Positions 1,956-34,532 of a stretch of 64,000 bases of DNA are shown piece by piece (within the stretch, counting starts at the first letter, position 1; the number at the start of each line of letters is the position of its first letter). A model generated the notes under the pieces. It was not told where the DNA came from and did not search any database. It saw only the letters and a list, made by a program, of their open reading frames with translations. The DNA comes from Candidatus Kerfeldbacteria bacterium (lineage in GTDB: Bacteria; Patescibacteriota; Patescibacteriia; UBA10025; JAHIVO01). A program made the translations under genes and the position numbers. The stretch covers positions 408,007 through 472,006 of the forward strand of contig JACROE010000002.1 of the NCBI GenBank assembly GCA_016214565.1, written 5' to 3'.

Positions 1956-3167
1956 CTATTGCTGTAATGATCCGGTGAATTGATAAATAGGGGAAATAAT
2001 TGCCACTGCTAAAAATCCAAGTACTAACCCGATGATAATCAATAAGGTAGGCTCCAAAACAGTTGATAAATTTTTTGTAGCCGCATCAACTTCTTCTTCA
2101 TAAAAAGAAGCTAAGTAACCCAGGCTTGAATCAAGCTTACCCGTGCGCTCACCAACACCAATCATGCGAGTGGCCATGTCAGGAATATACTGGCTGGTGG
2201 CAAAAATTGAAGAAAGTGTCTGCCCCTTCTGTACACCGACCTGCGCCGACATCAGCAAATCACGATACACCGTATTTTCAATAGCCTGCGCCGTAATGCC
2301 CAGACTCTCATTTATCGTGATACCGCTCTTCAATAAAATGGAAACAATCCGGGTCAGTCGAGCAATATTTGCATTACGGATCAGTCGCTGCACGACTGGC
2401 ATCCGCAGGTACAAACGATGCATGACGCGGCGTACTGGAGGGGCAACCAGCGCCACGCGTAAACCAATGATGCATACGGCTGCTCCAGCCAACACATACC
2501 ATCCATAATCAACTAAAAATGTTGCAATGCTGAGAAAGACAACCGTGGTAGGCGGCAACGCAATCCTAAATGTATCAAATAATTGTACTAATTTAGGCAA
2601 TATGAAAATACTCAAACCAATCCCCAAGACAACCGTGGCCGAGAGGACAATACCAGGATATAGCAATGCTGATTTTACCTTCCGCTTAAGTTCATAATCT
2701 TTTTCTAATTCCGAAGCAATGTACTCGAGATTCTCCTCTAAAGTGCCACTCGCTTCACCGATACGAATCATGCCAACCATAATCGAGGTAAAGACGCGGG
2801 GATACCGGCTCATCGCGTCACCTAAACTTTTTCCATTTGATACGTCGCGAATGAGCTCTGCCACCACGCGCTGCATGGTTTGGCTGGCATTTTGTCCCTG
2901 AATAGTATCAAGTGATTCAACCAATGAAAGGCCGGCTCGAAGCATAATCGCTAAATGGCGGGCAAAAATCACTTTATCCAGCGCGCCAACCCGCCCACCC
3001 AATCCACTAGTATTAGTCAATGAAAAGCCGCCGGTCGCTGGAGCAATCGAAAGTATAGATAAATTTCTCTGGCGTAATTGTTGCGCCACATCGGTAGCCG
3101 TGTCTGCGGCCAGCGTTCCCCGCTGAACAATGCCTCGTGGCGTAGTTGCGATATAGCGATAGTCCAT
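1956..3167 (-). CDS. pilC: type IV pilus inner-membrane platform protein PilC (GspF family)
   Basis: Two GspF-type repeats and three TM blocks, in the expected position between pilB and pilM. The stop overlaps the pilM start region. Confidence 0.85.
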   Translation of the reverse strand: MDYRYIATTPRGIVQRGTLAADTATDVAQQLRQRNLSILSIAPATGGFSLTNTSGLGGRVGALDKVIFARHLAIMLRAGLSLVESLDTIQGQNASQTMQRVVAELIRDVSNGKSLGDAMSRYPRVFTSIMVGMIRIGEASGTLEENLEYIASELEKDYELKRKVKSALLYPGIVLSATVVLGIGLSIFILPKLVQLFDTFRIALPPTTVVFLSIATFLVDYGWYVLAGAAVCIIGLRVALVAPPVRRVMHRLYLRMPVVQRLIRNANIARLTRIVSILLKSGITINESLGITAQAIENTVYRDLLMSAQVGVQKGQTLSSIFATSQYIPDMATRMIGVGERTGKLDSSLGYLASFYEEEVDAATKNLSTVLEPTLLIIIGLVLGFLAVAIISPIYQFTGSLQQ

Positions 3168-3195
3168 AATAAAAACCCTCCCAAAAACTTCTTCG

Positions 3196-4887
3196 TTAGG
3201 TATTGGCCGCCCTTAAAACCTCGTCAACCGTGGTAATACCTCGTTTTGCCTTTTCCAGACCATCATCAAGCATAGTGCTCATCCCCTCGGCTATCGCCGC
3301 CTGGCGGATCACGTCGCTGTTTGCCCGTTGCATAATTAATTGCCGTATACGCTCCGTCATTTCGAGGACTTCAAAAATACCGACGCGCCCCTCAAAGCCA
3401 GTGTTATTGCACAACGCACATCCCTTGCCCCGATACAAACGAAATCCTTTTTCAGAAAAGCCAATTGCCTGCGCACGCGCCTCCCCAAGCAAGCTGGCAT
3501 AGCGCGACAATTCGACTGAATCTGGCGTATAGCTCTCAATGCACCCACGATGAATCTTGCGTACCAAGCGCTGAGCTAAAGCAACGTTTACCGTTGACGC
3601 AATCAAAAAAGGTTCGATTTTCATATCCAGCAGTCGGGGCAAGGTAGTCGGCGCGTCATTAGTGTGCAGCGTAGACAACACGAGGTGACCGGTCATAGCC
3701 GCATTGATGGCGATGCTGGCAGTCTCTTCATCTCGAATTTCACCCACCATAACAATATCAGGGTCTTGGCGGAGAATTGACCGCAAGCCAAGCGCAAACG
3801 TGAGATTGGTTTTTGAATCAACCTGTATCTGATTAACGCCATCAATATCATATTCGACCGGGTCTTCAATGGTAGAAATATTTACTTCACGCGTATTCAA
3901 AATTTTTAATAACGCATACAGGGTGGTGGTTTTACCGCTACCCGTGGGCCCGGTAGCTAAAATCATTCCGTGCGGCCGACGCACCGTCAGTTCAAGCTTA
4001 CGCATATCCGATTCGTTCATCCCCAGCTCTACCAGACTGAACTGACGGGATTTCTCGGTTAAGAGCCGCATCACAACTTTTTCTCCATCAGAAACAGGGA
4101 TGACTGAGACGCGGACGTCTACCTGCTCATCTTCGGTCGGGAAATCAAGGCGACCATCCTGAGCGGCCCGATGTTCATCCGTCCGCAGTTTGGCCATGAT
4201 TTTTATGCGAGTGATGATAAACGCATGCAATTCCTTGGGCAGCGTCACCACATCATGGAGAATGCCATCGATACGAAATCGGATGACCACTGATTCCTCG
4301 TGCGGTTCAATGTGCACATCGGAAGCCTTATTTTCATAGGCATAATGCAGAATTGTATCAACAATTCGCGTGATCGGCAGTTCGCGATTGGCCGCTGGCG
4401 TACCTTGCGCCGCCGCGACATTATGTTGAATAATATCATCAAAAGCCTCGGTCAACTCCTTGCGATAAAACTTCAACGCGTCATTAATATTGCGCACCGT
4501 AGTATAGTGCGGGATGACGCGATGGCCTGTTTTTTTCTCAATAAAATATTTCAGCTCCTCATTAGTTGGATCAACCATGGCGACCTTGAGGCCGTCACCG
4601 GTTTGCTCAAATGCGAGGAGGCGTTGGCGTTTTGCCACCAGCTCAGGAATGACCCGCAAAACCGAATCAGGAATCTGTTTGGTCGTCACGTTGACGTACG
4701 GTACGCTATATAGATCCGCGATAATTTGGCCGAGGTTTTCATCGCTGACTAATTCAGCTTCAACCAATTCCTGCTCAACCGAAGTATGGTGTTCACGCGC
4801 ACGCGCCACAGCCGAACTAAACTGATCCTCAGTAATAAGTTCAGCGGCAAGTAATTCACGCTTCAGCTGTTCCTGATCAAGCGCCAT
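3196..4887 (-). CDS. pilB: type IV pilus assembly ATPase PilB (GspE family)
   Basis: Walker A GPTGSGKTT, Asp/His boxes and a C-terminal CxxC...CxxC tetracysteine, plus an N-terminal GSPII_E_N-like domain. Likely start is MALDQEQ (4887); the track ORF extends to 4920. Confidence 0.9.
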   Translation of the reverse strand: MALDQEQLKRELLAAELITEDQFSSAVARAREHHTSVEQELVEAELVSDENLGQIIADLYSVPYVNVTTKQIPDSVLRVIPELVAKRQRLLAFEQTGDGLKVAMVDPTNEELKYFIEKKTGHRVIPHYTTVRNINDALKFYRKELTEAFDDIIQHNVAAAQGTPAANRELPITRIVDTILHYAYENKASDVHIEPHEESVVIRFRIDGILHDVVTLPKELHAFIITRIKIMAKLRTDEHRAAQDGRLDFPTEDEQVDVRVSVIPVSDGEKVVMRLLTEKSRQFSLVELGMNESDMRKLELTVRRPHGMILATGPTGSGKTTTLYALLKILNTREVNISTIEDPVEYDIDGVNQIQVDSKTNLTFALGLRSILRQDPDIVMVGEIRDEETASIAINAAMTGHLVLSTLHTNDAPTTLPRLLDMKIEPFLIASTVNVALAQRLVRKIHRGCIESYTPDSVELSRYASLLGEARAQAIGFSEKGFRLYRGKGCALCNNTGFEGRVGIFEVLEMTERIRQLIMQRANSDVIRQAAIAEGMSTMLDDGLEKAKRGITTVDEVLRAANT

Positions 4888-6391: not shown

Positions 6392-7447
6392 ATGGCAAAA
6401 ATCGACGACATATTTAATAAAGCAATCGGGCGCGGCGCCTCAGACATCCACCTGACGGTTGATCGAAAACCAATTTTTCGGGTTGACGGAGAATTAGCCG
6501 AAATGAACGGTGACGTCAAACCGCTAACCGCCAAAGCGCTGCAAGAGATGATTTTTGAAATCCTCACTGACAAGCAGCAACAAATTTTGTTACATGAGCG
6601 TGAGCTCGATTTTTCATACGAAATTAATAACCACGGACGGTTCCGGGTCAATTGTTTCTGGGAACGAGATAACATTGCTCTGGCGGCGCGTATTATTTCG
6701 GGAGTCATCCCAGCTATGCAAGATCTGTTAATGCCAGAAATCGTGTACGACTTGATGCGTATGAAACAAGGTCTCGTGCTGGTAACAGGCCCAACCGGCA
6801 GCGGTAAGTCAACCACGCTGGCGGCTATGATTAATCTGATAAACCAGGAGCGAGCGGCGCACATCGTCACCCTCGAGGATCCAATTGAATTTGTCTACCC
6901 ACCTAATTCGGGGAAAAGCCTGATTGTCCAACGCCAATTATCATCAGACATGCTGTCGTTTGCCAGCGCCCTGAAGCACGTACTGCGCCAAGACCCCAAT
7001 GTCATTCTGGTCGGTGAAATGCGTGATTTGGAAACGATTGGCACAACGATTACGCTAGCCGAAACAGGGCATTTGGTGCTAGCCACCCTCCACACCTATA
7101 ATGCCGGCCAAACCGTTGATCGTATCATCGACGTATTCCCACCCCACCAACAGCCTCAAGTTCGACTTCAATTATCCCTCTTCCTCAAAGGCATCATTTC
7201 TCAACAGCTTTTGCCCAAAATCGGCGGAGGGCGTATTGCTGCCAGAGAAATTCTTATCAATAATCACGCGATTGGAAACCTCATCCGGGAAAACAAGATT
7301 CCCCAGATTAAAACAGTTATCCAGACCAGTGCTGACGAGGGAATGTTTACGATGGACCAAGATCTGAAACGATTATACGAGGACGGATTTATTGAAAAAG
7401 ACATCGCCAAAAGCTACATGGCCACGCCTCAAGCTCTCGACGCTTGA
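6392..7447 (+). CDS. pilT: twitching-motility / pilus retraction ATPase PilT
   Basis: N-terminus ASDIHL...PIFRVDGEL, Walker A GPTGSGKST, and the length and organisation of PilT/PilU. Confidence 0.9.
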   Translation: MAKIDDIFNKAIGRGASDIHLTVDRKPIFRVDGELAEMNGDVKPLTAKALQEMIFEILTDKQQQILLHERELDFSYEINNHGRFRVNCFWERDNIALAARIISGVIPAMQDLLMPEIVYDLMRMKQGLVLVTGPTGSGKSTTLAAMINLINQERAAHIVTLEDPIEFVYPPNSGKSLIVQRQLSSDMLSFASALKHVLRQDPNVILVGEMRDLETIGTTITLAETGHLVLATLHTYNAGQTVDRIIDVFPPHQQPQVRLQLSLFLKGIISQQLLPKIGGGRIAAREILINNHAIGNLIRENKIPQIKTVIQTSADEGMFTMDQDLKRLYEDGFIEKDIAKSYMATPQALDA

Positions 7448-7550
7448 AATCAAAGTAATTACGCGCTACTATTGACCATACCAATCATCTCGATAGGGTA
7501 AGGTTGCTTTTATACGCCGCGCGTGCTAGAGTTGCCTGATTCTATTCACC

Positions 7551-7567
7551 CGCGCCCGTAGCTCAAC
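7551..7567 (+). repeat. 17-nt direct repeat copying the 5' end of tRNA-Arg (upstream copy)
   Basis: cgcgcccgtagctcaac at 7551-7567 is identical to 7888-7904, the start of the intact tRNA. It is followed by nested hairpins (ccccgac..gtcgggg; ctccgac..gtcggag) rather than a cloverleaf. Confidence 0.8.
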
Positions 7568-7625
7568 CCCGACGCTTCAGTCGGGGCTCCGACCTCCTAC
7601 GGGAGCGTCGGAGCGGATAAAAATT

Positions 7626-7898
7626 ATGCGTGGCTACGTCTACATATTGCGAGATAATAAAGGTAAACTATACATCGGCAGTACGATTGATCTCAACCGA
7701 CGTTTGACTCAACATCAGGTAGGCCACACGAAAACAACCCACCGAATGATTGAGCCAAAACTTGTATTCAAACAACTGTTCTCTACAATTGCTGAAGCCC
7801 GACGCACCGAACGAAAACTGAAAGCGTGGAAGCGTAAAGATTATATTGAAAAAATAATTGAAGACGGATATATTAGGATTACTCTTGCGCGCCCGTAG
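7626..7898 (+). CDS. small GIY-YIG nuclease-domain protein (UPF0213/YhbQ-like)
   Basis: MRGYVYILRDNKGKLYIGSTIDLNRRLTQHQ matches the GIY-YIG core (GIY, YIG, Arg, later Glu). 90 aa. Its last codons and stop (gcg cgc ccg tag) are the 5' acceptor stem of tRNA-Arg. Confidence 0.75.
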   Translation: MRGYVYILRDNKGKLYIGSTIDLNRRLTQHQVGHTKTTHRMIEPKLVFKQLFSTIAEARRTERKLKAWKRKDYIEKIIEDGYIRITLARP

Positions 7899-7963
7899 CT
7901 CAACGGATAGAGTGCTGGTCTTCGGAACCAGTGATGGGGGTTCGATTCCCTCCGGGCGCACCA
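7889..7963 (+). tRNA. tRNA-Arg (anticodon TCG)
   Basis: Cloverleaf by eye: acceptor GCGCCCG/CGGGCGC, D-arm GCTCAACGGATAGAGT, anticodon stem CTGGT/ACCAG with loop CTTCGGA (U33, TCG, G37), T-arm GGGGGTTCGATTCCCTC, encoded CCA. Confidence 0.85.
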
Positions 7964-7989
7964 AGCGACCGAGCGAACAGATTACTATC

Positions 7990-8066
7990 GGACGATTAGC
8001 TCAGTTGGTTAGAGCGCCTCGTTTACACCGAGGAGGTCGTAGGTTCGACTCCTACATCGTCCACCA
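7990..8066 (+). tRNA. tRNA-Val (anticodon TAC)
   Basis: Acceptor GGACGAT/ATCGTCC, D-arm GCTCAGTTGGTTAGAGC, anticodon stem CCTCG/CGAGG with loop TTTACAC, T-arm GTAGGTTCGACTCCTAC, encoded CCA. Confidence 0.85.
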
Positions 8067-8096
8067 CGAACGACAACTAACGGTTATCAATAACTT

Positions 8097-8348
8097 ATGC
8101 AATACGTCCTTGGCTTTATCATGATCGGTATCGGCTTCGTCATCACCTGGAAGGCTGACTGGCTGGTCAATAATTTTGGCAGAGTCGCCTGGGCCGAAGA
8201 ACATCTGGGTATGGACGGTGGCACCCGTCTATTCTGGAAATTAATTGGCATTATTGTTATTATCGGTTCATTCTTGTATATGACTGGTGCGCTGCAGGCA
8301 ATCATCCGTGGCATATTTGGCAGCTCATTTTCTTCGGTCAGCAGCTAG
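8097..8348 (+). CDS. small hypothetical membrane protein (2 TM)
   Basis: 83-aa ORF between tRNA-Val and tRNA-Ala with two clear hydrophobic helices. No recognisable motif. Confidence 0.4.
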   Translation: MQYVLGFIMIGIGFVITWKADWLVNNFGRVAWAEEHLGMDGGTRLFWKLIGIIVIIGSFLYMTGALQAIIRGIFGSSFSSVSS

Positions 8349-8514
8349 AAAACGAGACGCGTAGCAATACGGCCAATCAATAAATTTGAAAGGTCAATGG
8401 CAACACTCAATACCCGAGCCTGACCATAGGGCGGGCGAGGGAGAGGGGCAATGATGCCAAGGGTGCAGTGGACAGCGTCAGCTGTACGCGAAACCCGCAG
8501 CATCATTGAGACGA

Positions 8515-8590
8515 GGGCCCTTAGCTCATTTGGTAGAGCGCCGCGTTTGCAACGCGGAGGTGACCGGTTCGAGCCCGGTAGGGTCCACCA
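8515..8590 (+). tRNA. tRNA-Ala (anticodon TGC)
   Basis: Acceptor GGGCCCT/AGGGTCC including a G3:U70 wobble, the alanine identity element. D-arm GCTCATTTGGTAGAGC, anticodon stem CCGCG/CGCGG with loop TTTGCAA, T-arm ACCGGTTCGAGCCCGGT, encoded CCA. Confidence 0.85.
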
Positions 8591-8630
8591 AAAAACTCCT
8601 CAACATTTCGTGAAGGAGTTTTTTGTTTTT
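8591..8630 (+). terminator. rho-independent terminator after tRNA-Ala
   Basis: Stem aactcct/aggagtt with loop caacatttcgtga, followed by TTTTTTGTTTTT. Confidence 0.6.
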
Positions 8631-8637
8631 CTAATTG

Positions 8638-8781
8638 TTAGACGGTTTCGTCTTCCAATTCCTCAGGATTTTCCTCGTCTTCTCCGGTGAAGGTTGGCTC
8701 GGCGCCCATTCCATCTCCTTCCCCTTCGCCATAAAAATCACGATTGATATCGTCAGACGTAGGTCGCACGGGAATTCCCAT
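8638..8781 (-). CDS. possible small, highly acidic peptide (47 aa)
   Basis: Minus-strand ORF MGIPVRPTSDDINRDFYGEGEGDGMGAEPTFTGEDEENPEELEDETV*, found by manual translation and below the ORF-track cutoff. It lies just upstream of the Wzy-like gene. No other support. Confidence 0.2.
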   Translation of the reverse strand: MGIPVRPTSDDINRDFYGEGEGDGMGAEPTFTGEDEENPEELEDETV

Positions 8782-8787
8782 AAAGCA

Positions 8788-10110
8788 TTATGAATTAATT
8801 ATTTTCTCTTGTGGAGCTGGCAAGCCCCGAAGGGTAACCGCCAACCCAATTAAAGTCCAAAATTGAATGGCTAAATCATTTTTAAAATAAGGGGTATCAA
8901 GCAGTCCATGCACAAGCAGTACAATCATCGCCGCCATCAGCCCAATCGCCAGTGACCGTACCTCAGCATCTGCTTGCCGCAGTGCTCGCCGTATCATTTG
9001 GAAAAAACGTACCATCATAATACAAAATATTACGACACCCGCCAACCCCATCTCAATCCACAAGGATAACCATAGGTGATCGGGGTTGGGGAAAAACTCT
9101 GTGTGTGACGCTTCTTTATAATCACCGTAGACCACTGGGAAACTCGCTAAACCAGTACCCAATACCGGATGATCCTGAATAATGCGAGTCGCTCCTTTCC
9201 ACATCACGAGCCGCACGTCAGTGGACACGTCAGACGCCTGAACGACATCCATAATATTACTTCGAATCGCCGGAATCATTAAGGCAGCGACGGCCATCAC
9301 TAACAAGCCCGCCCAAAGCGCGCGGCGATAGCGGGAAAAAAAACTAACTACCACCAAACTGACGAGCACCCCTGCTATCGCGCCGCGGGAAACAGAAAAC
9401 AATAGTGCCACCAAACTAAACGTCAGCACGCCAATGACAAATCCGTGCTCACGGACTGTTTCCCAGAGCGTCCCCCGCCATAGGCGCGCTGCGCCAAAGA
9501 GTAAACCGAGAAACAACCCCATAATCGGACCAATGATTTTCCCGACTGCGGTAGGGAATGGAAACATGCCGGTAGCTCGAGCCGGGGATTCGAGGCCATA
9601 CCCACCCGGAATGCTCAAAATATTCGTATATTGCAAAAGCGTCACAAAACCAATCACCACGGCGAGCACCCCGAGCGCCCACACAACTCCGCGCACCTGC
9701 TGACGCGTTTTAATGGTATTAACAAATACTATGAAAAACAACGCTGGTTCGATGATATATGCTTTCCATAAACCTAGCGCCGCACGCACATCAGGTGAAA
9801 TAGCCACAGCCAGAACTCCGGCTACCACCCAGGCAATGAGTAGCCAACGCCAAGGGGAAAATACGGAAGACGCGTGGGTGCGACTACGTTCTTGAATAGC
9901 GCGCCAGCTCCACGTCACCACAACAATGATAACCATAAGCTCAAGCAGCGTCATGGGTAACGGCCCGACATTAAAACGAATCAAGTATACCGGTAAAAAC
10001 AAAATCACGAGCGTCACTGCCCAATCAAGCATGCGCCAGGCAAGATATGCCCAGATGAAAGCAAATATAATTACTATAACGGCATCAAGCATATCCATAG
10101 TGTACATCAT
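8788..10110 (-). CDS. O-antigen ligase / Wzy-type polymerase family membrane protein
   Basis: About 10-12 TM helices and a Wzy_C-like motif H-x3-L-x4-E-x-G-x2-G (DHLWLSLWIEMGLAGV) in a late loop. Confidence 0.65.
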   Translation of the reverse strand: MMYTMDMLDAVIVIIFAFIWAYLAWRMLDWAVTLVILFLPVYLIRFNVGPLPMTLLELMVIIVVVTWSWRAIQERSRTHASSVFSPWRWLLIAWVVAGVLAVAISPDVRAALGLWKAYIIEPALFFIVFVNTIKTRQQVRGVVWALGVLAVVIGFVTLLQYTNILSIPGGYGLESPARATGMFPFPTAVGKIIGPIMGLFLGLLFGAARLWRGTLWETVREHGFVIGVLTFSLVALLFSVSRGAIAGVLVSLVVVSFFSRYRRALWAGLLVMAVAALMIPAIRSNIMDVVQASDVSTDVRLVMWKGATRIIQDHPVLGTGLASFPVVYGDYKEASHTEFFPNPDHLWLSLWIEMGLAGVVIFCIMMVRFFQMIRRALRQADAEVRSLAIGLMAAMIVLLVHGLLDTPYFKNDLAIQFWTLIGLAVTLRGLPAPQEKIINS

Positions 10111-32720: not shown

Positions 32721-34532
32721 TTATTTGGTGACTTTGAATACTTCATCGATTGTGGTAATGCCCTGCAAAGCCTTGAGAATGCCATCCTGCTGCATAGTTA
32801 ACATACCCGCCTTGTGACCCTCTTCTTTAAGGGCGTATTCAGAAACCTTGCCTGACAAGATCAGTTGTTCAATATTTGGATTCATAGTCAGCATTTCAAA
32901 TATACCGATACGTCCACGAAACCCGGTTTCATGGTTTTCCGGTGTTGGGATACCCCGATAAAATTTCAGATGCTGTGAATCGACGTTTCTCCGCATCTCC
33001 TGCGGAATGGATTCAAGCACTTGATGCACCAATTCAAGCTGGGCCGCTTCAGGCGTATATTCCTCCTTATGCGCCGGGTCAATCCGACGAACCAGCCGCT
33101 GACCGATTAATAAATTCAAAGCGGGTGCTAAGAGAAATGGTCGGACATTCATCGCCAACAACCGCGGGATGGCTCCGGCGGCGCTATTCGTGTGCAGCGT
33201 TGAAAGCATGAGATGCCCGGTCAAAGCTGCCTGAATGGCAATTTCTGCCGTTTCTTGATCTCGAATTTCACCGACCATCACAATGTCGGGATCTTGGCGT
33301 AAGACCGCCCGCAGTCCAGTGGCAAACGTAAACTGCTGCCGGCCGGTCGTTCCCGACTTCAATAAAGTACGGATGTCTTCTTTTTCGCCCGATTGCTCGC
33401 CGCCCTGCACTTGGCTCTGGGTCACACCCTTCAAACGATATTCAATCGGGTTTTCCAGAGTAATTATTTTTGATTCTGGGCTGTTCAATTTTTTTAATAT
33501 CGCATACAGCGTCGTCGTTTTACCAGAGCCAGTGGGGCCAGTCGTGATAATCATGCCATTCGGTCGGCTCATTTCTCGAATCAATATGTCGTAGGCGGGA
33601 CCAACCAAGCCCATGCCGTCCAGTCCAATGCCGGTGGATGATGACATAAGCAACCGCATCACAATACTTTCGCCATACGCGCTCGGTACTGTCGATACAC
33701 GCACGTCAATAAAATCATTCGTCATGAAGATGGTAAACCGACCGTCTTGGGGGATATCTGAAACGTTTATTTTTAGTTTGGCCAATAATTTCACTCGATT
33801 AATCACCTTGGGCCACATCTTCTTCTGCAACATGGCAGCGTCATACAACACGCCATCAACGCGAAATCGAACCTTGACGTCATCTTGCTCTGCTTCGATA
33901 TGCACATCCGATGCCTGGGACTGGATAGCGGTGGCCATGATGATGGTAAATAGGTCGCTGGTAGAGACATGCTGGATCTTTTCCTGAAGCTCACGGAATG
34001 ATTTTATGTCTCGTTGGTATTTCTTCAAATCCTCCTCCTTAATCTCAATACCAGCCACGTACGTGCGTGGGCGGGGGAGGGCGGCATACAGCTTCAATGC
34101 TGCATCCAAGCTAAGTGCGGACAACGCATATAAATCACCATGACACTGTGTTTCTTCCTGAATGGCATCAAATTTTTTCTGCACTTCGGGATCGAGAGGA
34201 TTAATCGCTCCCAAACGAAATTCGCGGTCAGTCTTAAAAAAACAGACCGCCTGCAACGATCGGGCCACGTCTTCATCTATCAAGATAAGAGCTTCAGGCG
34301 CAATCGGGAACCCTTTCAGGTTAATATATCCGACGCCCATTCGCTGCGCCTCTTCCTGAGTTGCCTCCTCTTTCCTCTTGGCTTCAATTTCATGAATCTT
34401 TGATTTCAATTTTTCTTCAACCTCTTCAGATGAAACCTGTGGGGCGCCATCGTGAGATTGACGAATCAAGTCATCAATACTTCGCTCATGTTTTGAAGTA
34501 ATATCCTGGTTCATACCCACGCAGTATACCAA
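32721..34532 (-). CDS. second GspE/PilB-family secretion/pilus ATPase (orphan)
   Basis: Walker A GPTGSGKTT, Asp and His boxes, an N-terminal GSPII_E_N-like domain. No CxxC tetrad seen at the C-terminus. It is not next to other pilus genes. Confidence 0.85.
   Translation of the reverse strand: MVYCVGMNQDITSKHERSIDDLIRQSHDGAPQVSSEEVEEKLKSKIHEIEAKRKEEATQEEAQRMGVGYINLKGFPIAPEALILIDEDVARSLQAVCFFKTDREFRLGAINPLDPEVQKKFDAIQEETQCHGDLYALSALSLDAALKLYAALPRPRTYVAGIEIKEEDLKKYQRDIKSFRELQEKIQHVSTSDLFTIIMATAIQSQASDVHIEAEQDDVKVRFRVDGVLYDAAMLQKKMWPKVINRVKLLAKLKINVSDIPQDGRFTIFMTNDFIDVRVSTVPSAYGESIVMRLLMSSSTGIGLDGMGLVGPAYDILIREMSRPNGMIITTGPTGSGKTTTLYAILKKLNSPESKIITLENPIEYRLKGVTQSQVQGGEQSGEKEDIRTLLKSGTTGRQQFTFATGLRAVLRQDPDIVMVGEIRDQETAEIAIQAALTGHLMLSTLHTNSAAGAIPRLLAMNVRPFLLAPALNLLIGQRLVRRIDPAHKEEYTPEAAQLELVHQVLESIPQEMRRNVDSQHLKFYRGIPTPENHETGFRGRIGIFEMLTMNPNIEQLILSGKVSEYALKEEGHKAGMLTMQQDGILKALQGITTIDEVFKVTK

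Follow-up and report, generated by a model that had tools for sequence, protein, structure and literature searches.

A small cassette, made up of a gene for a stand-alone GIY-YIG protein and of a conserved double-hairpin DNA module (hereafter module H), is found directly 5' of tRNA genes in Patescibacteria. We describe it in a 64-kb stretch of a Candidatus Kerfeldbacteria genome (contig JACROE010000002.1, 1.1 Mb long, positions 408,007 to 472,006; hereafter the window, to which the coordinates of all unlabelled features refer), where it precedes a tRNA-Arg(TCG) gene. The reading that we consider probable is that of a selfish, homing-type, nuclease-driven cassette, which enters tRNA genes at a fixed internal site and leaves a regenerated tRNA behind it. 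In the window, the segment 7567-7888, i.e., module H, a short resumption of the tRNA (fragment b'), a leader, the open reading frame (ORF) and at least the regenerated 5' part of the tRNA, would represent an insertion into the resident tRNA-Arg(TCG) gene between positions 15 and 16. Both the nuclease activity and the homing are predictions.

All the features of the locus lie on the plus strand. The 17-nt sequence CGCGCCCGTAGCTCAAC forms an exact direct repeat at 7551-7567 and 7888-7904; no third copy is present in the window, even when up to 2 mismatches are allowed, and the chance expectation for such a repeat is 0.01 (100 shuffles). An earlier first-pass annotation of this DNA had already noticed the repeat, which is thus confirmed. 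Its downstream copy belongs to an intact tRNA-Arg(TCG), called at 7889-7963 by both ARAGORN and Rfam (69.6 bits in the latter), and its upstream copy includes a fragment corresponding to tRNA-Arg positions 1-15 (7552-7566, the psi-5' fragment). However, the upstream copy extends further than the repeat to which it had been limited. Indeed, the hexamer CGGATA (7614-7619, fragment b'), located directly 3' of the hairpins, reads as tRNA-Arg positions 16-21. Since the tRNA resumes after the hairpins, the upstream copy corresponds to tRNA-Arg 1-21, cleanly split at 15/16, in the D-loop, by a 47-nt double hairpin. Fold predictions and motif scans both delimit its two hairpins, h1 (CC-CCGAC-gcttca-GTCGG-GG, 7567-7586) and h2 (CT-CCGAC-ctcctacgggagc-GTCGG-AG, 7587-7613), which together constitute module H. 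Two strong hairpins had been announced correctly, but the span proposed for them, 7568-7620, was not exact. For the region 7540-7630, the predicted folding energy is -39 kcal/mol (z=-4.07), and none of 200 shuffled sequences is equally stable (0/200). Fragment b' is followed by the GIY-YIG ORF (7626-7898, 90 aa), whose end does overlap the tRNA, as had been claimed: its last codons GCG CGC CCG and its stop TAG (7896-7898) correspond to tRNA-Arg positions -2 to 10, i.e., an overlap of 10 nt, and the stop codon is U8-A9-G10 of tRNA-Arg(TCG).

Comparison with other loci, cited below by their L numbers, points to an insertion. The first-pass annotation had proposed to look for empty sites, and the metagenomic relative L082 (contig Ga0185342_1000095; PilT 77% identical) provides one: it carries no cassette and joins PilT directly to tRNA-Arg(TCG). 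Its gene order, i.e., PilT, tRNA-Arg(TCG), tRNA-Val(TAC), a small membrane ORF and tRNA-Ala(TGC), is syntenic with the window. A promoter-like layout (TTGATT, spacer, TATGGT) lies 5' of the tRNA-Arg of L082, at a distance similar to that found in the window. There, the putative resident tRNA promoter (TTGCTT, 17 nt, TAGAGT; 7504-7532), which is a weak match to the consensus (7/12, below the threshold of the scan tool), would now stand before the truncated copy. As the layout of L082 aligns with it, the truncated copy sits at the ancestral tRNA start. In three more distant loci (L084, L086, and L094), tRNA-Arg(TCG) also comes directly after PilT. The presence or absence at homologous loci that characterizes homing genes is therefore found here through the single relative L082. 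The psi-5' fragment of L003 comes after the 3' end of an older GIY-YIG ORF, a sign of serial insertion.

The cassette belongs to a large family. A scan using one genome per species gave 103 relatives, of which the best 80 were examined and, together with the window, make up 81 loci; their hosts are nearly all Patescibacteria (Candidate Phyla Radiation, CPR). A tRNA of the same strand starts at most 40 nt after the ORF in 69/81 loci, and 62 of these tRNA-linked loci also have module H at most 45 nt before the ATG. As the first-pass annotation had suggested checking, hairpins and GIY-YIG gene recur together, in the genomes of relatives, next to many tRNA types: the partners are tRNAs for Arg (5 anticodons), Thr, His, Val, Phe, Ile, Lys, Ala, Pro, Met, and Asp. 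The stop codon coincides with tRNA positions 8-10 (U8-A9-G10) in 20/81 loci. A second copy of the 5' end of the partner tRNA lies 66-130 nt 5' of the ATG in 44/76 loci, against 0/73 for downstream control regions, and a fragment b' of 5-18 nt is seen in other loci. The ORF is intact in 74/76 family members and several cassettes can be present in a single metagenome-assembled genome (MAG). More widely, a profile search of 1.84 billion representative proteins returned 1,898 clusters (50% identity) at E<=1e-10. On the other hand, IMG/VR yielded no relative and INPHARED only two weak partial matches in Staphylococcus phages (30% identity, E=6e-4); a phage origin of the cassette was rejected on these grounds. 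We found no account of the arrangement of GIY-YIG gene, double hairpin, and tRNA in full-text searches of the literature, and it is also absent from a recent survey of Patescibacteria tRNA introns.

These data bear on the alternative that the first-pass annotation had itself raised, namely a decayed tandem duplicate of tRNA-Arg with an unrelated ORF in between. The upstream element is truly a partial tRNA copy (positions 1-21). However, it matches the tRNA without any difference as far as a sharp boundary, where the match ends, it is split by a conserved module, and neither ARAGORN nor Rfam detects a cloverleaf upstream. Moreover, the truncated copy stops at about position 21-26 in most loci, for any tRNA type, and the same structure is found at more than 60 loci. 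A decayed duplicate is hardly credible in our view.

The position of module H inside the tRNA copy was read from the contexts of parsed loci, and the proteins were compared in a neighbour-joining tree. H is a clean insertion into the tRNA copy, at a position that varies by group. It is found at 15/16 in all Arg isoacceptors (TTCAA-H-YGGATAG), at 10/11 in a mixed group of Phe, Lys, Ile, Met, Val, and Thr (TAG-H-CTCAG), at 15/16 in a Thr group (CTCAG-H-TTGG), and at 33/34, in the anticodon loop, in a His group (CTCTG-H-TGGCA). An integrase-less nuclease cassette at a tRNA, as first proposed, is thus what we find, but its site is internal (15/16, 10/11, or 33/34) and not the tRNA 5' end. In the protein tree, the clades are formed by insertion site and not by tRNA identity. 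In the orthologous loci L052 and L066 (around 80% identical), H interrupts the same tRNA fragment, at 15/16 in L052 and at 10/11 in L066, and each site agrees with the GIY clade of the locus; since the two sites follow their nuclease clades, the site is a property of the nuclease lineage. A CNNNG pentamer, the motif favoured by the I-TevI nuclease domain, contains or adjoins 36/39 sites, for a background frequency of 0.07 per position, an enrichment that is a hint only because the loci are mutually related.

Module H itself has a constant form in the family, NN-CCGAC-loop-GTCGG-N'N', two in tandem, and lies at most 45 nt 5' of the ATG in 70/81 loci. Base pairing extends to the two positions outside the CCGAC/GTCGG core, which pair in 236 and 233 of 251 candidates, against 137±5 and 145±5 with shuffled partners, and the third position outward is unpaired; hence, the stems measure 7 bp and covary. 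An unpaired G follows CCGAC in h1 and an unpaired C precedes GTCGG in h2, so that h2 is the reverse-complement form of h1 and the module is two-fold symmetric. This symmetry would fit recognition of H as DNA, with which it is compatible without proving it. The loops are 4-45 nt long and some hold a nested copy of the same hairpin; hairpins of the form CCGACG-loop-CGTCGG nested in the loops of others are seen 5' of the GIY-YIG ATG in L002, L012, L018, L030, L046, L051, L058, and L079, and tandem or double H modules within one tRNA fragment in L067, L051, L016, and L042. No consistent rule was found by which the variable dinucleotides of the stem base would derive from the target. H is thus a conserved, covarying module cleanly inserted in a truncated tRNA copy and not incidental cargo: the first description of the nuclease as sole cargo was right as to the lack of an integrase, but not as to the hairpins.

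Could H be a palindromic mobile element in its own right, of the type of repetitive extragenic palindromes (REPs), miniature inverted-repeat transposable elements (MITEs) or mitochondrial double-hairpin elements (DHEs), tolerated in dispensable tRNA fragments and only indirectly linked to the GIY-YIG gene? Its units nest, occur as tandem duplicates (L067), and are found twice in a single psi fragment (L051 and L016), its stems covary, and its motif is two-fold symmetric like REP head-to-head dimers (PMC3733652). However, H is not dispersed. The window contains no double-hairpin module other than that at 7567-7613, and the only other strict CCGAC...GTCGG match (33271-33289) is solitary and chance-like; in the 5-kb loci, 159/248 hairpins are found at <200 nt 5' of the ATG, and the rest are mostly beside the tRNA copies of cassettes. 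Moreover, the insertion site follows the nuclease clade and no HUH transposase gene is found nearby. We therefore regard an independent origin of H as quite unlikely.

Several known types of element were compared with H and set aside. REPs and bacterial interspersed mosaic elements (BIMEs) with their REP-associated tyrosine transposases (RAYTs), as well as CGTC-tagged REPs, consist, like H, of short GC-rich hairpins that often form inverted dimers and in some cases nest or cluster (PMC3733652), and the CGTC REPs are without known mobilising enzyme (PMC3733652). However, REPs are distributed genome-wide with a tag outside the stem, whereas H has the core CCGAC/GTCGG, is confined to cassettes and has no HUH enzyme; the likeness to CGTC-tagged REPs is superficial. 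A REP/RAYT system (REPtron), which would have GTAG-tagged hairpins, was rejected in view of the missing HUH gene nearby, the single module in 64 kb and the CCGAC stem core. In the region 6500-9500, Rfam (E<=1) reports tRNAs only and an uninterrupted tRNA follows the ORF, which led us to reject a group I or II intron in the tRNA gene and any other known ribozyme, intron or riboswitch in the hairpin region. H as a spliced mini-intron was rejected as well: the cassette is almost always accompanied by an intact tRNA, and the copies interrupted by H are mostly truncated ones.

The ORF product matches Pfam PF01541 over residues 3-71 (E=1.6e-14, 54.4 bits for a cut-off of 22.6). Among 28 homologues, residues Y6, Y16, G18, R26, and H30 are invariant and E62 is kept in at least 90%; the GIY-YIG catalytic residues are thus present. 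The family proteins are 84-91 aa long, typically around 87, and consist of the catalytic domain alone followed by a basic tail of around 20 aa. In profile searches of the PDB, the best matches are 1zg2 (BH0048, E=4.1e-11) and 1ywl (EF2693, E=3.1e-8), and the next nearest solved structures after these two UPF0213 proteins are Slx1 and I-TevI. By these comparisons, the protein is a stand-alone UPF0213-type GIY-YIG protein of a single domain, closest to BH0048 and EF2693. It resembles the UPF0213 / COG2827 proteins (1zg2 BH0048, 1ywl EF2693, and E. coli YhbQ) by its single domain, its similar size and its best structure match; we know of no function and no tRNA linkage for these proteins. A C-terminal tail, KRKDYIEKIIxDGYIK, is conserved in the subfamily and, from the alignments, appears specific to the cassette subfamily within UPF0213 / COG2827. 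No second GIY-YIG gene was found in the window using tblastn and blastn-short. Many database entries of the family are gene calls of 110-130 aa instead of around 87, in which the match begins near residue 30. In L066 (2396-2761), the over-long call arises because the gene caller starts at a GTG or TTG further upstream and reads through the hairpin module, and this annotation artefact probably explains the other calls of 110-130 aa too.

The 3' end of the ORF contains a sigma-70-like motif (TTGAAA, 17 nt, TATATT; 7846-7874, 10/12 match), which lies in the conserved C-terminal codons (YIEK...GYI) and whose -10 box ends 14 nt before the tRNA +1. The form of this motif in the family is TTGA(A/G)A, 17 nt, TA(T/C)ATT. 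It reaches at least 9/12 in 41/69 loci, against 11/69 for a control segment of the ORF, and across these 41 loci the -10 box ends 8-20 nt before the tRNA +1. Since the motif is not independent of the conserved peptide, it is to be taken as a putative promoter. Such an embedded promoter may explain both the conservation of the peptide and the fixed spacing between ORF and tRNA. A scan of the locus revealed no intrinsic terminator; hence, the hairpins do not constitute a conventional terminator for PilT.

Co-expression of ORF and tRNA is suggested by their close spacing as well as by the promoter-like motif inside the ORF, and UPF0213 proteins are widespread without known function. Both points would suit a fixed host arrangement, in which a GIY-YIG protein with a tRNA-related or repair function is co-transcribed with the tRNA and the fragments are by-products of local recombination. 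Nevertheless, the partner tRNA varies by genome, the gene is missing from this locus in a close relative, and the target fragments, the serial insertions and the multiple copies per genome are hallmarks of mobility. This arrangement appears very improbable to us.

How might the homing-type cassette move? In a first step, the nuclease would break a naive tRNA gene at its clade-specific site, in the D-arm or the anticodon loop. The break would then be repaired by copying the cassette-bearing allele (homing, by synthesis-dependent strand annealing): the left end would pair with the psi-5' fragment beside H, and the new strand would re-anneal via the 60 nt of tRNA located downstream. This would yield the common layout psi5'-H-b'-ORF-tRNA, and other annealing points would lead to the rarer layouts described below. 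The outcome expected from such a repair is the arrangement observed, with the putative resident promoter and tRNA 1-15 upstream, H at the junction, an ORF that abuts the tRNA +1, and an intact tRNA after it. Finally, the conserved 3' end of the ORF probably supplies the promoter of the regenerated tRNA. With an intact tRNA regenerated and a promoter borne by the ORF, the cassette would be nearly neutral to its host, and its target highly conserved. Campbell-type integration of a circle via the 17-nt repeat was rejected, since it could not place a complete H at both junctions, which is the situation of the two-H loci; it is kept only as a variant.

The rarer layouts are diverse. In 19 loci, a 5'-truncated copy of the same isoacceptor, with H at the same site, lies 3' of the intact tRNA; its 3' acceptor strand is often that of a different allele, e.g., in L014 and L040. 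The downstream H-bearing copy of L071, L026, and L064 is identical to the intact tRNA over 41-64 nt, and L053 and L059 contain full-length tRNAs interrupted by H. In 10 loci, an H-interrupted copy comes next after the ORF, and the intact tRNA is found further on, upstream, or is not seen. These observations would be expected from a mobile unit acting by a cleave-and-rescue-like process, in which the ORF moves with a complete tRNA and the resident tRNA, destroyed by H inserted at the cut, persists as psi fragments to one side or to both. The loci L081, L052, and L066, in which the psi-5' fragment is of a different allele from the adjacent tRNA, also speak for it. On the other hand, in the window 26 nt separate the intact tRNA-Arg from tRNA-Val and there is no downstream psi copy. 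The acceptor strand of the psi-5' fragment is that of the adjacent tRNA in 25/35 well-parsed loci, and the intact tRNA shows no recoding of the site, so that a rescue would be without evident immunity. For these reasons, we consider cleave-and-rescue unlikely.

Several observations weigh against the homing cassette that we favour. We have a single clear empty site, L082, in a relative whose PilT is 77% identical, and L162, a second sample of the species of the window, has the cassette as well. Indeed, exact-protein look-ups (GIY-YIG protein, PilT, and an 83-aa neighbour) returned two short contigs, both matching the window: the contig reaching past PilT (L162) is filled and that of the GIY-YIG gene (L001) carries the cassette, so that no within-species polymorphism was seen. 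Three loci, e.g., L035, have the ORF and a tRNA without psi fragment or H. In L019, L052, L066, and L081, the upstream fragment is of a different allele from the adjacent tRNA. Because of this mismatch, the first-pass idea of a cassette that carries only a replacement 5' end is incomplete, as the downstream H-interrupted copies also indicate; that it leaves an intact tRNA remains true. The reading does not account for the matching acceptor strands found after a jump to a new tRNA type, and it assigns neither source nor role to H. The regenerated tRNA keeps its site uninterrupted and is expected to be cleavable, whereas the upstream copy is split by H exactly there. An uncut-looking site of this kind has a precedent in the GIY-YIG endonuclease SegB of phage T4, because SegB sites remain in its own genome (PMC2330249). 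Lastly, the 87-90 aa of the protein leave no separate DNA-binding domain, unlike in I-TevI and the Seg proteins, and a clade-specific site preference is not accounted for without one. A way out would be that the psi-tRNA and H, as RNA transcribed from the resident promoter or as single-stranded DNA, form a bipartite guide, in which H binds the protein and the two arms pair with the naive tRNA gene to the left and right of the cut. We give this proposal very little credence. If true, an 87-aa nuclease reduced to its catalytic domain, with a clade-specific and retargetable specificity, would constitute a nucleic-acid-guided GIY-YIG system.

Some of these loci present further peculiarities. L035 (2230-2400 and 2421-2834) contains two tandem hairpin-bearing fragments of tRNA-Arg, with no ORF, before an intact tRNA-Arg(TCT). 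Its GIY-YIG ORF begins 7 nt after this tRNA-Arg(TCT) and abuts a tRNA-Val, of which there is no fragment, and it has no hairpins. Relative to L052, L066 carries an insertion of around 1.1 kb (2826-3968) between tRNA-Arg and tRNA-Val, with a minus-strand ORF of 139 aa (3397-3816) showing an HNH-like motif, HHINANKVDNRIENL, i.e., a second kind of nuclease beside tRNAs. In L082, a partial tRNA-Ala(TGC) duplicate (4150-4205, around positions 8-56) lies directly 5' of the intact tRNA-Ala (4229-4305), without ORF and without hairpin module. In the window, a 28-nt imperfect inverted repeat (8449-8508; 71% complementary, 4-nt spacer), which is not of the CCGAC type, stands just 5' of tRNA-Ala (8515-8590). 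A Pfam scan of 10 neighbouring ORFs identified type IV pilus proteins, a two-component system, and glycosyltransferases, and no integrase, transposase, or HUH transposase within 6 kb on either side.

Integrase-driven islands and prophages resemble the cassette by a direct repeat made of a tRNA part and by a regenerated tRNA. However, they use the tRNA 3' end and a tyrosine or serine integrase, whereas the repeat is here a 5' part. A tRNA-integrating island or prophage was rejected, as there is no integrase and the repeat covers tRNA positions 1-16, not the 3' end. Mitochondria offer the closest analogues in form. Mobile endonuclease ORFs (mORFs), such as Allomyces atp6-ORF360 and the Glomus mORFs, are free-standing, insert at the end of a gene, bring a replacement piece that preserves the function of the gene and leave a remnant, and the DHEs or GC clusters of the same genomes are GC-rich elements of two stem-loops. 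Like these DHEs, which have two adjacent GC-rich stem-loops of around 26-80 nt and insert cleanly, H comprises, in 47 nt, two stems with a 7-bp core, a likeness of form. The mORFs differ from the cassette in that they are organellar, target the 3' ends of protein genes, and encode other nuclease families or larger proteins.

The closest known relative system of the cassette is T4 SegB, a free-standing GIY-YIG homing endonuclease encoded in a tRNA gene cluster, which cuts conserved motifs of tRNA genes, some of them in the T4 genome itself (PMC2330249), and drives the segmental amplification of tRNA genes (PMC13096335). Both have an intronless GIY-YIG gene among tRNA genes, and the cassette nuclease, like SegB, would have a conserved tRNA-gene target. 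However, SegB is phage-borne, whereas the cassette family is chromosomal in Patescibacteria and its proteins have 87-90 aa. The 27-bp site of SegB is centred on T-psi-C, and that of the cassette family lies in the D-arm or the anticodon loop. Neither a truncated copy of the target nor a double hairpin has been reported for SegB, nor a constant location immediately 5' of a tRNA, all of which are found in the cassette. It is also a protein of around 220 aa with a DNA-binding domain.

In this framework, the cassette would be a kind of free-standing homing endonuclease gene, unusual by its minimal size, its fixed position 5' of a tRNA with partial duplication of the target, and its dedicated module H. 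Homing endonuclease genes are known chiefly from phages, organelles, introns, and inteins, and a large family of minimal ones residing in chromosomal tRNA genes of Patescibacteria, whose genomes are tiny and reduced, would extend this range to a new niche. Duplicating the front of the tRNA, perhaps with a promoter internal to the ORF, would be a new solution for insertion into an essential gene, used instead of splicing. Site preferences that differ by clade in an 87-aa nuclease without DNA-binding domain pose a biochemical question of their own. Moreover, a conserved double-hairpin DNA module tied to a specific enzyme would provide a link long missing for organellar GC clusters, for DHEs, and for some bacterial palindromic repeats. 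For the genomes themselves, the cassettes account for tRNA pseudo-fragments and probably for over-long gene calls in CPR annotations.

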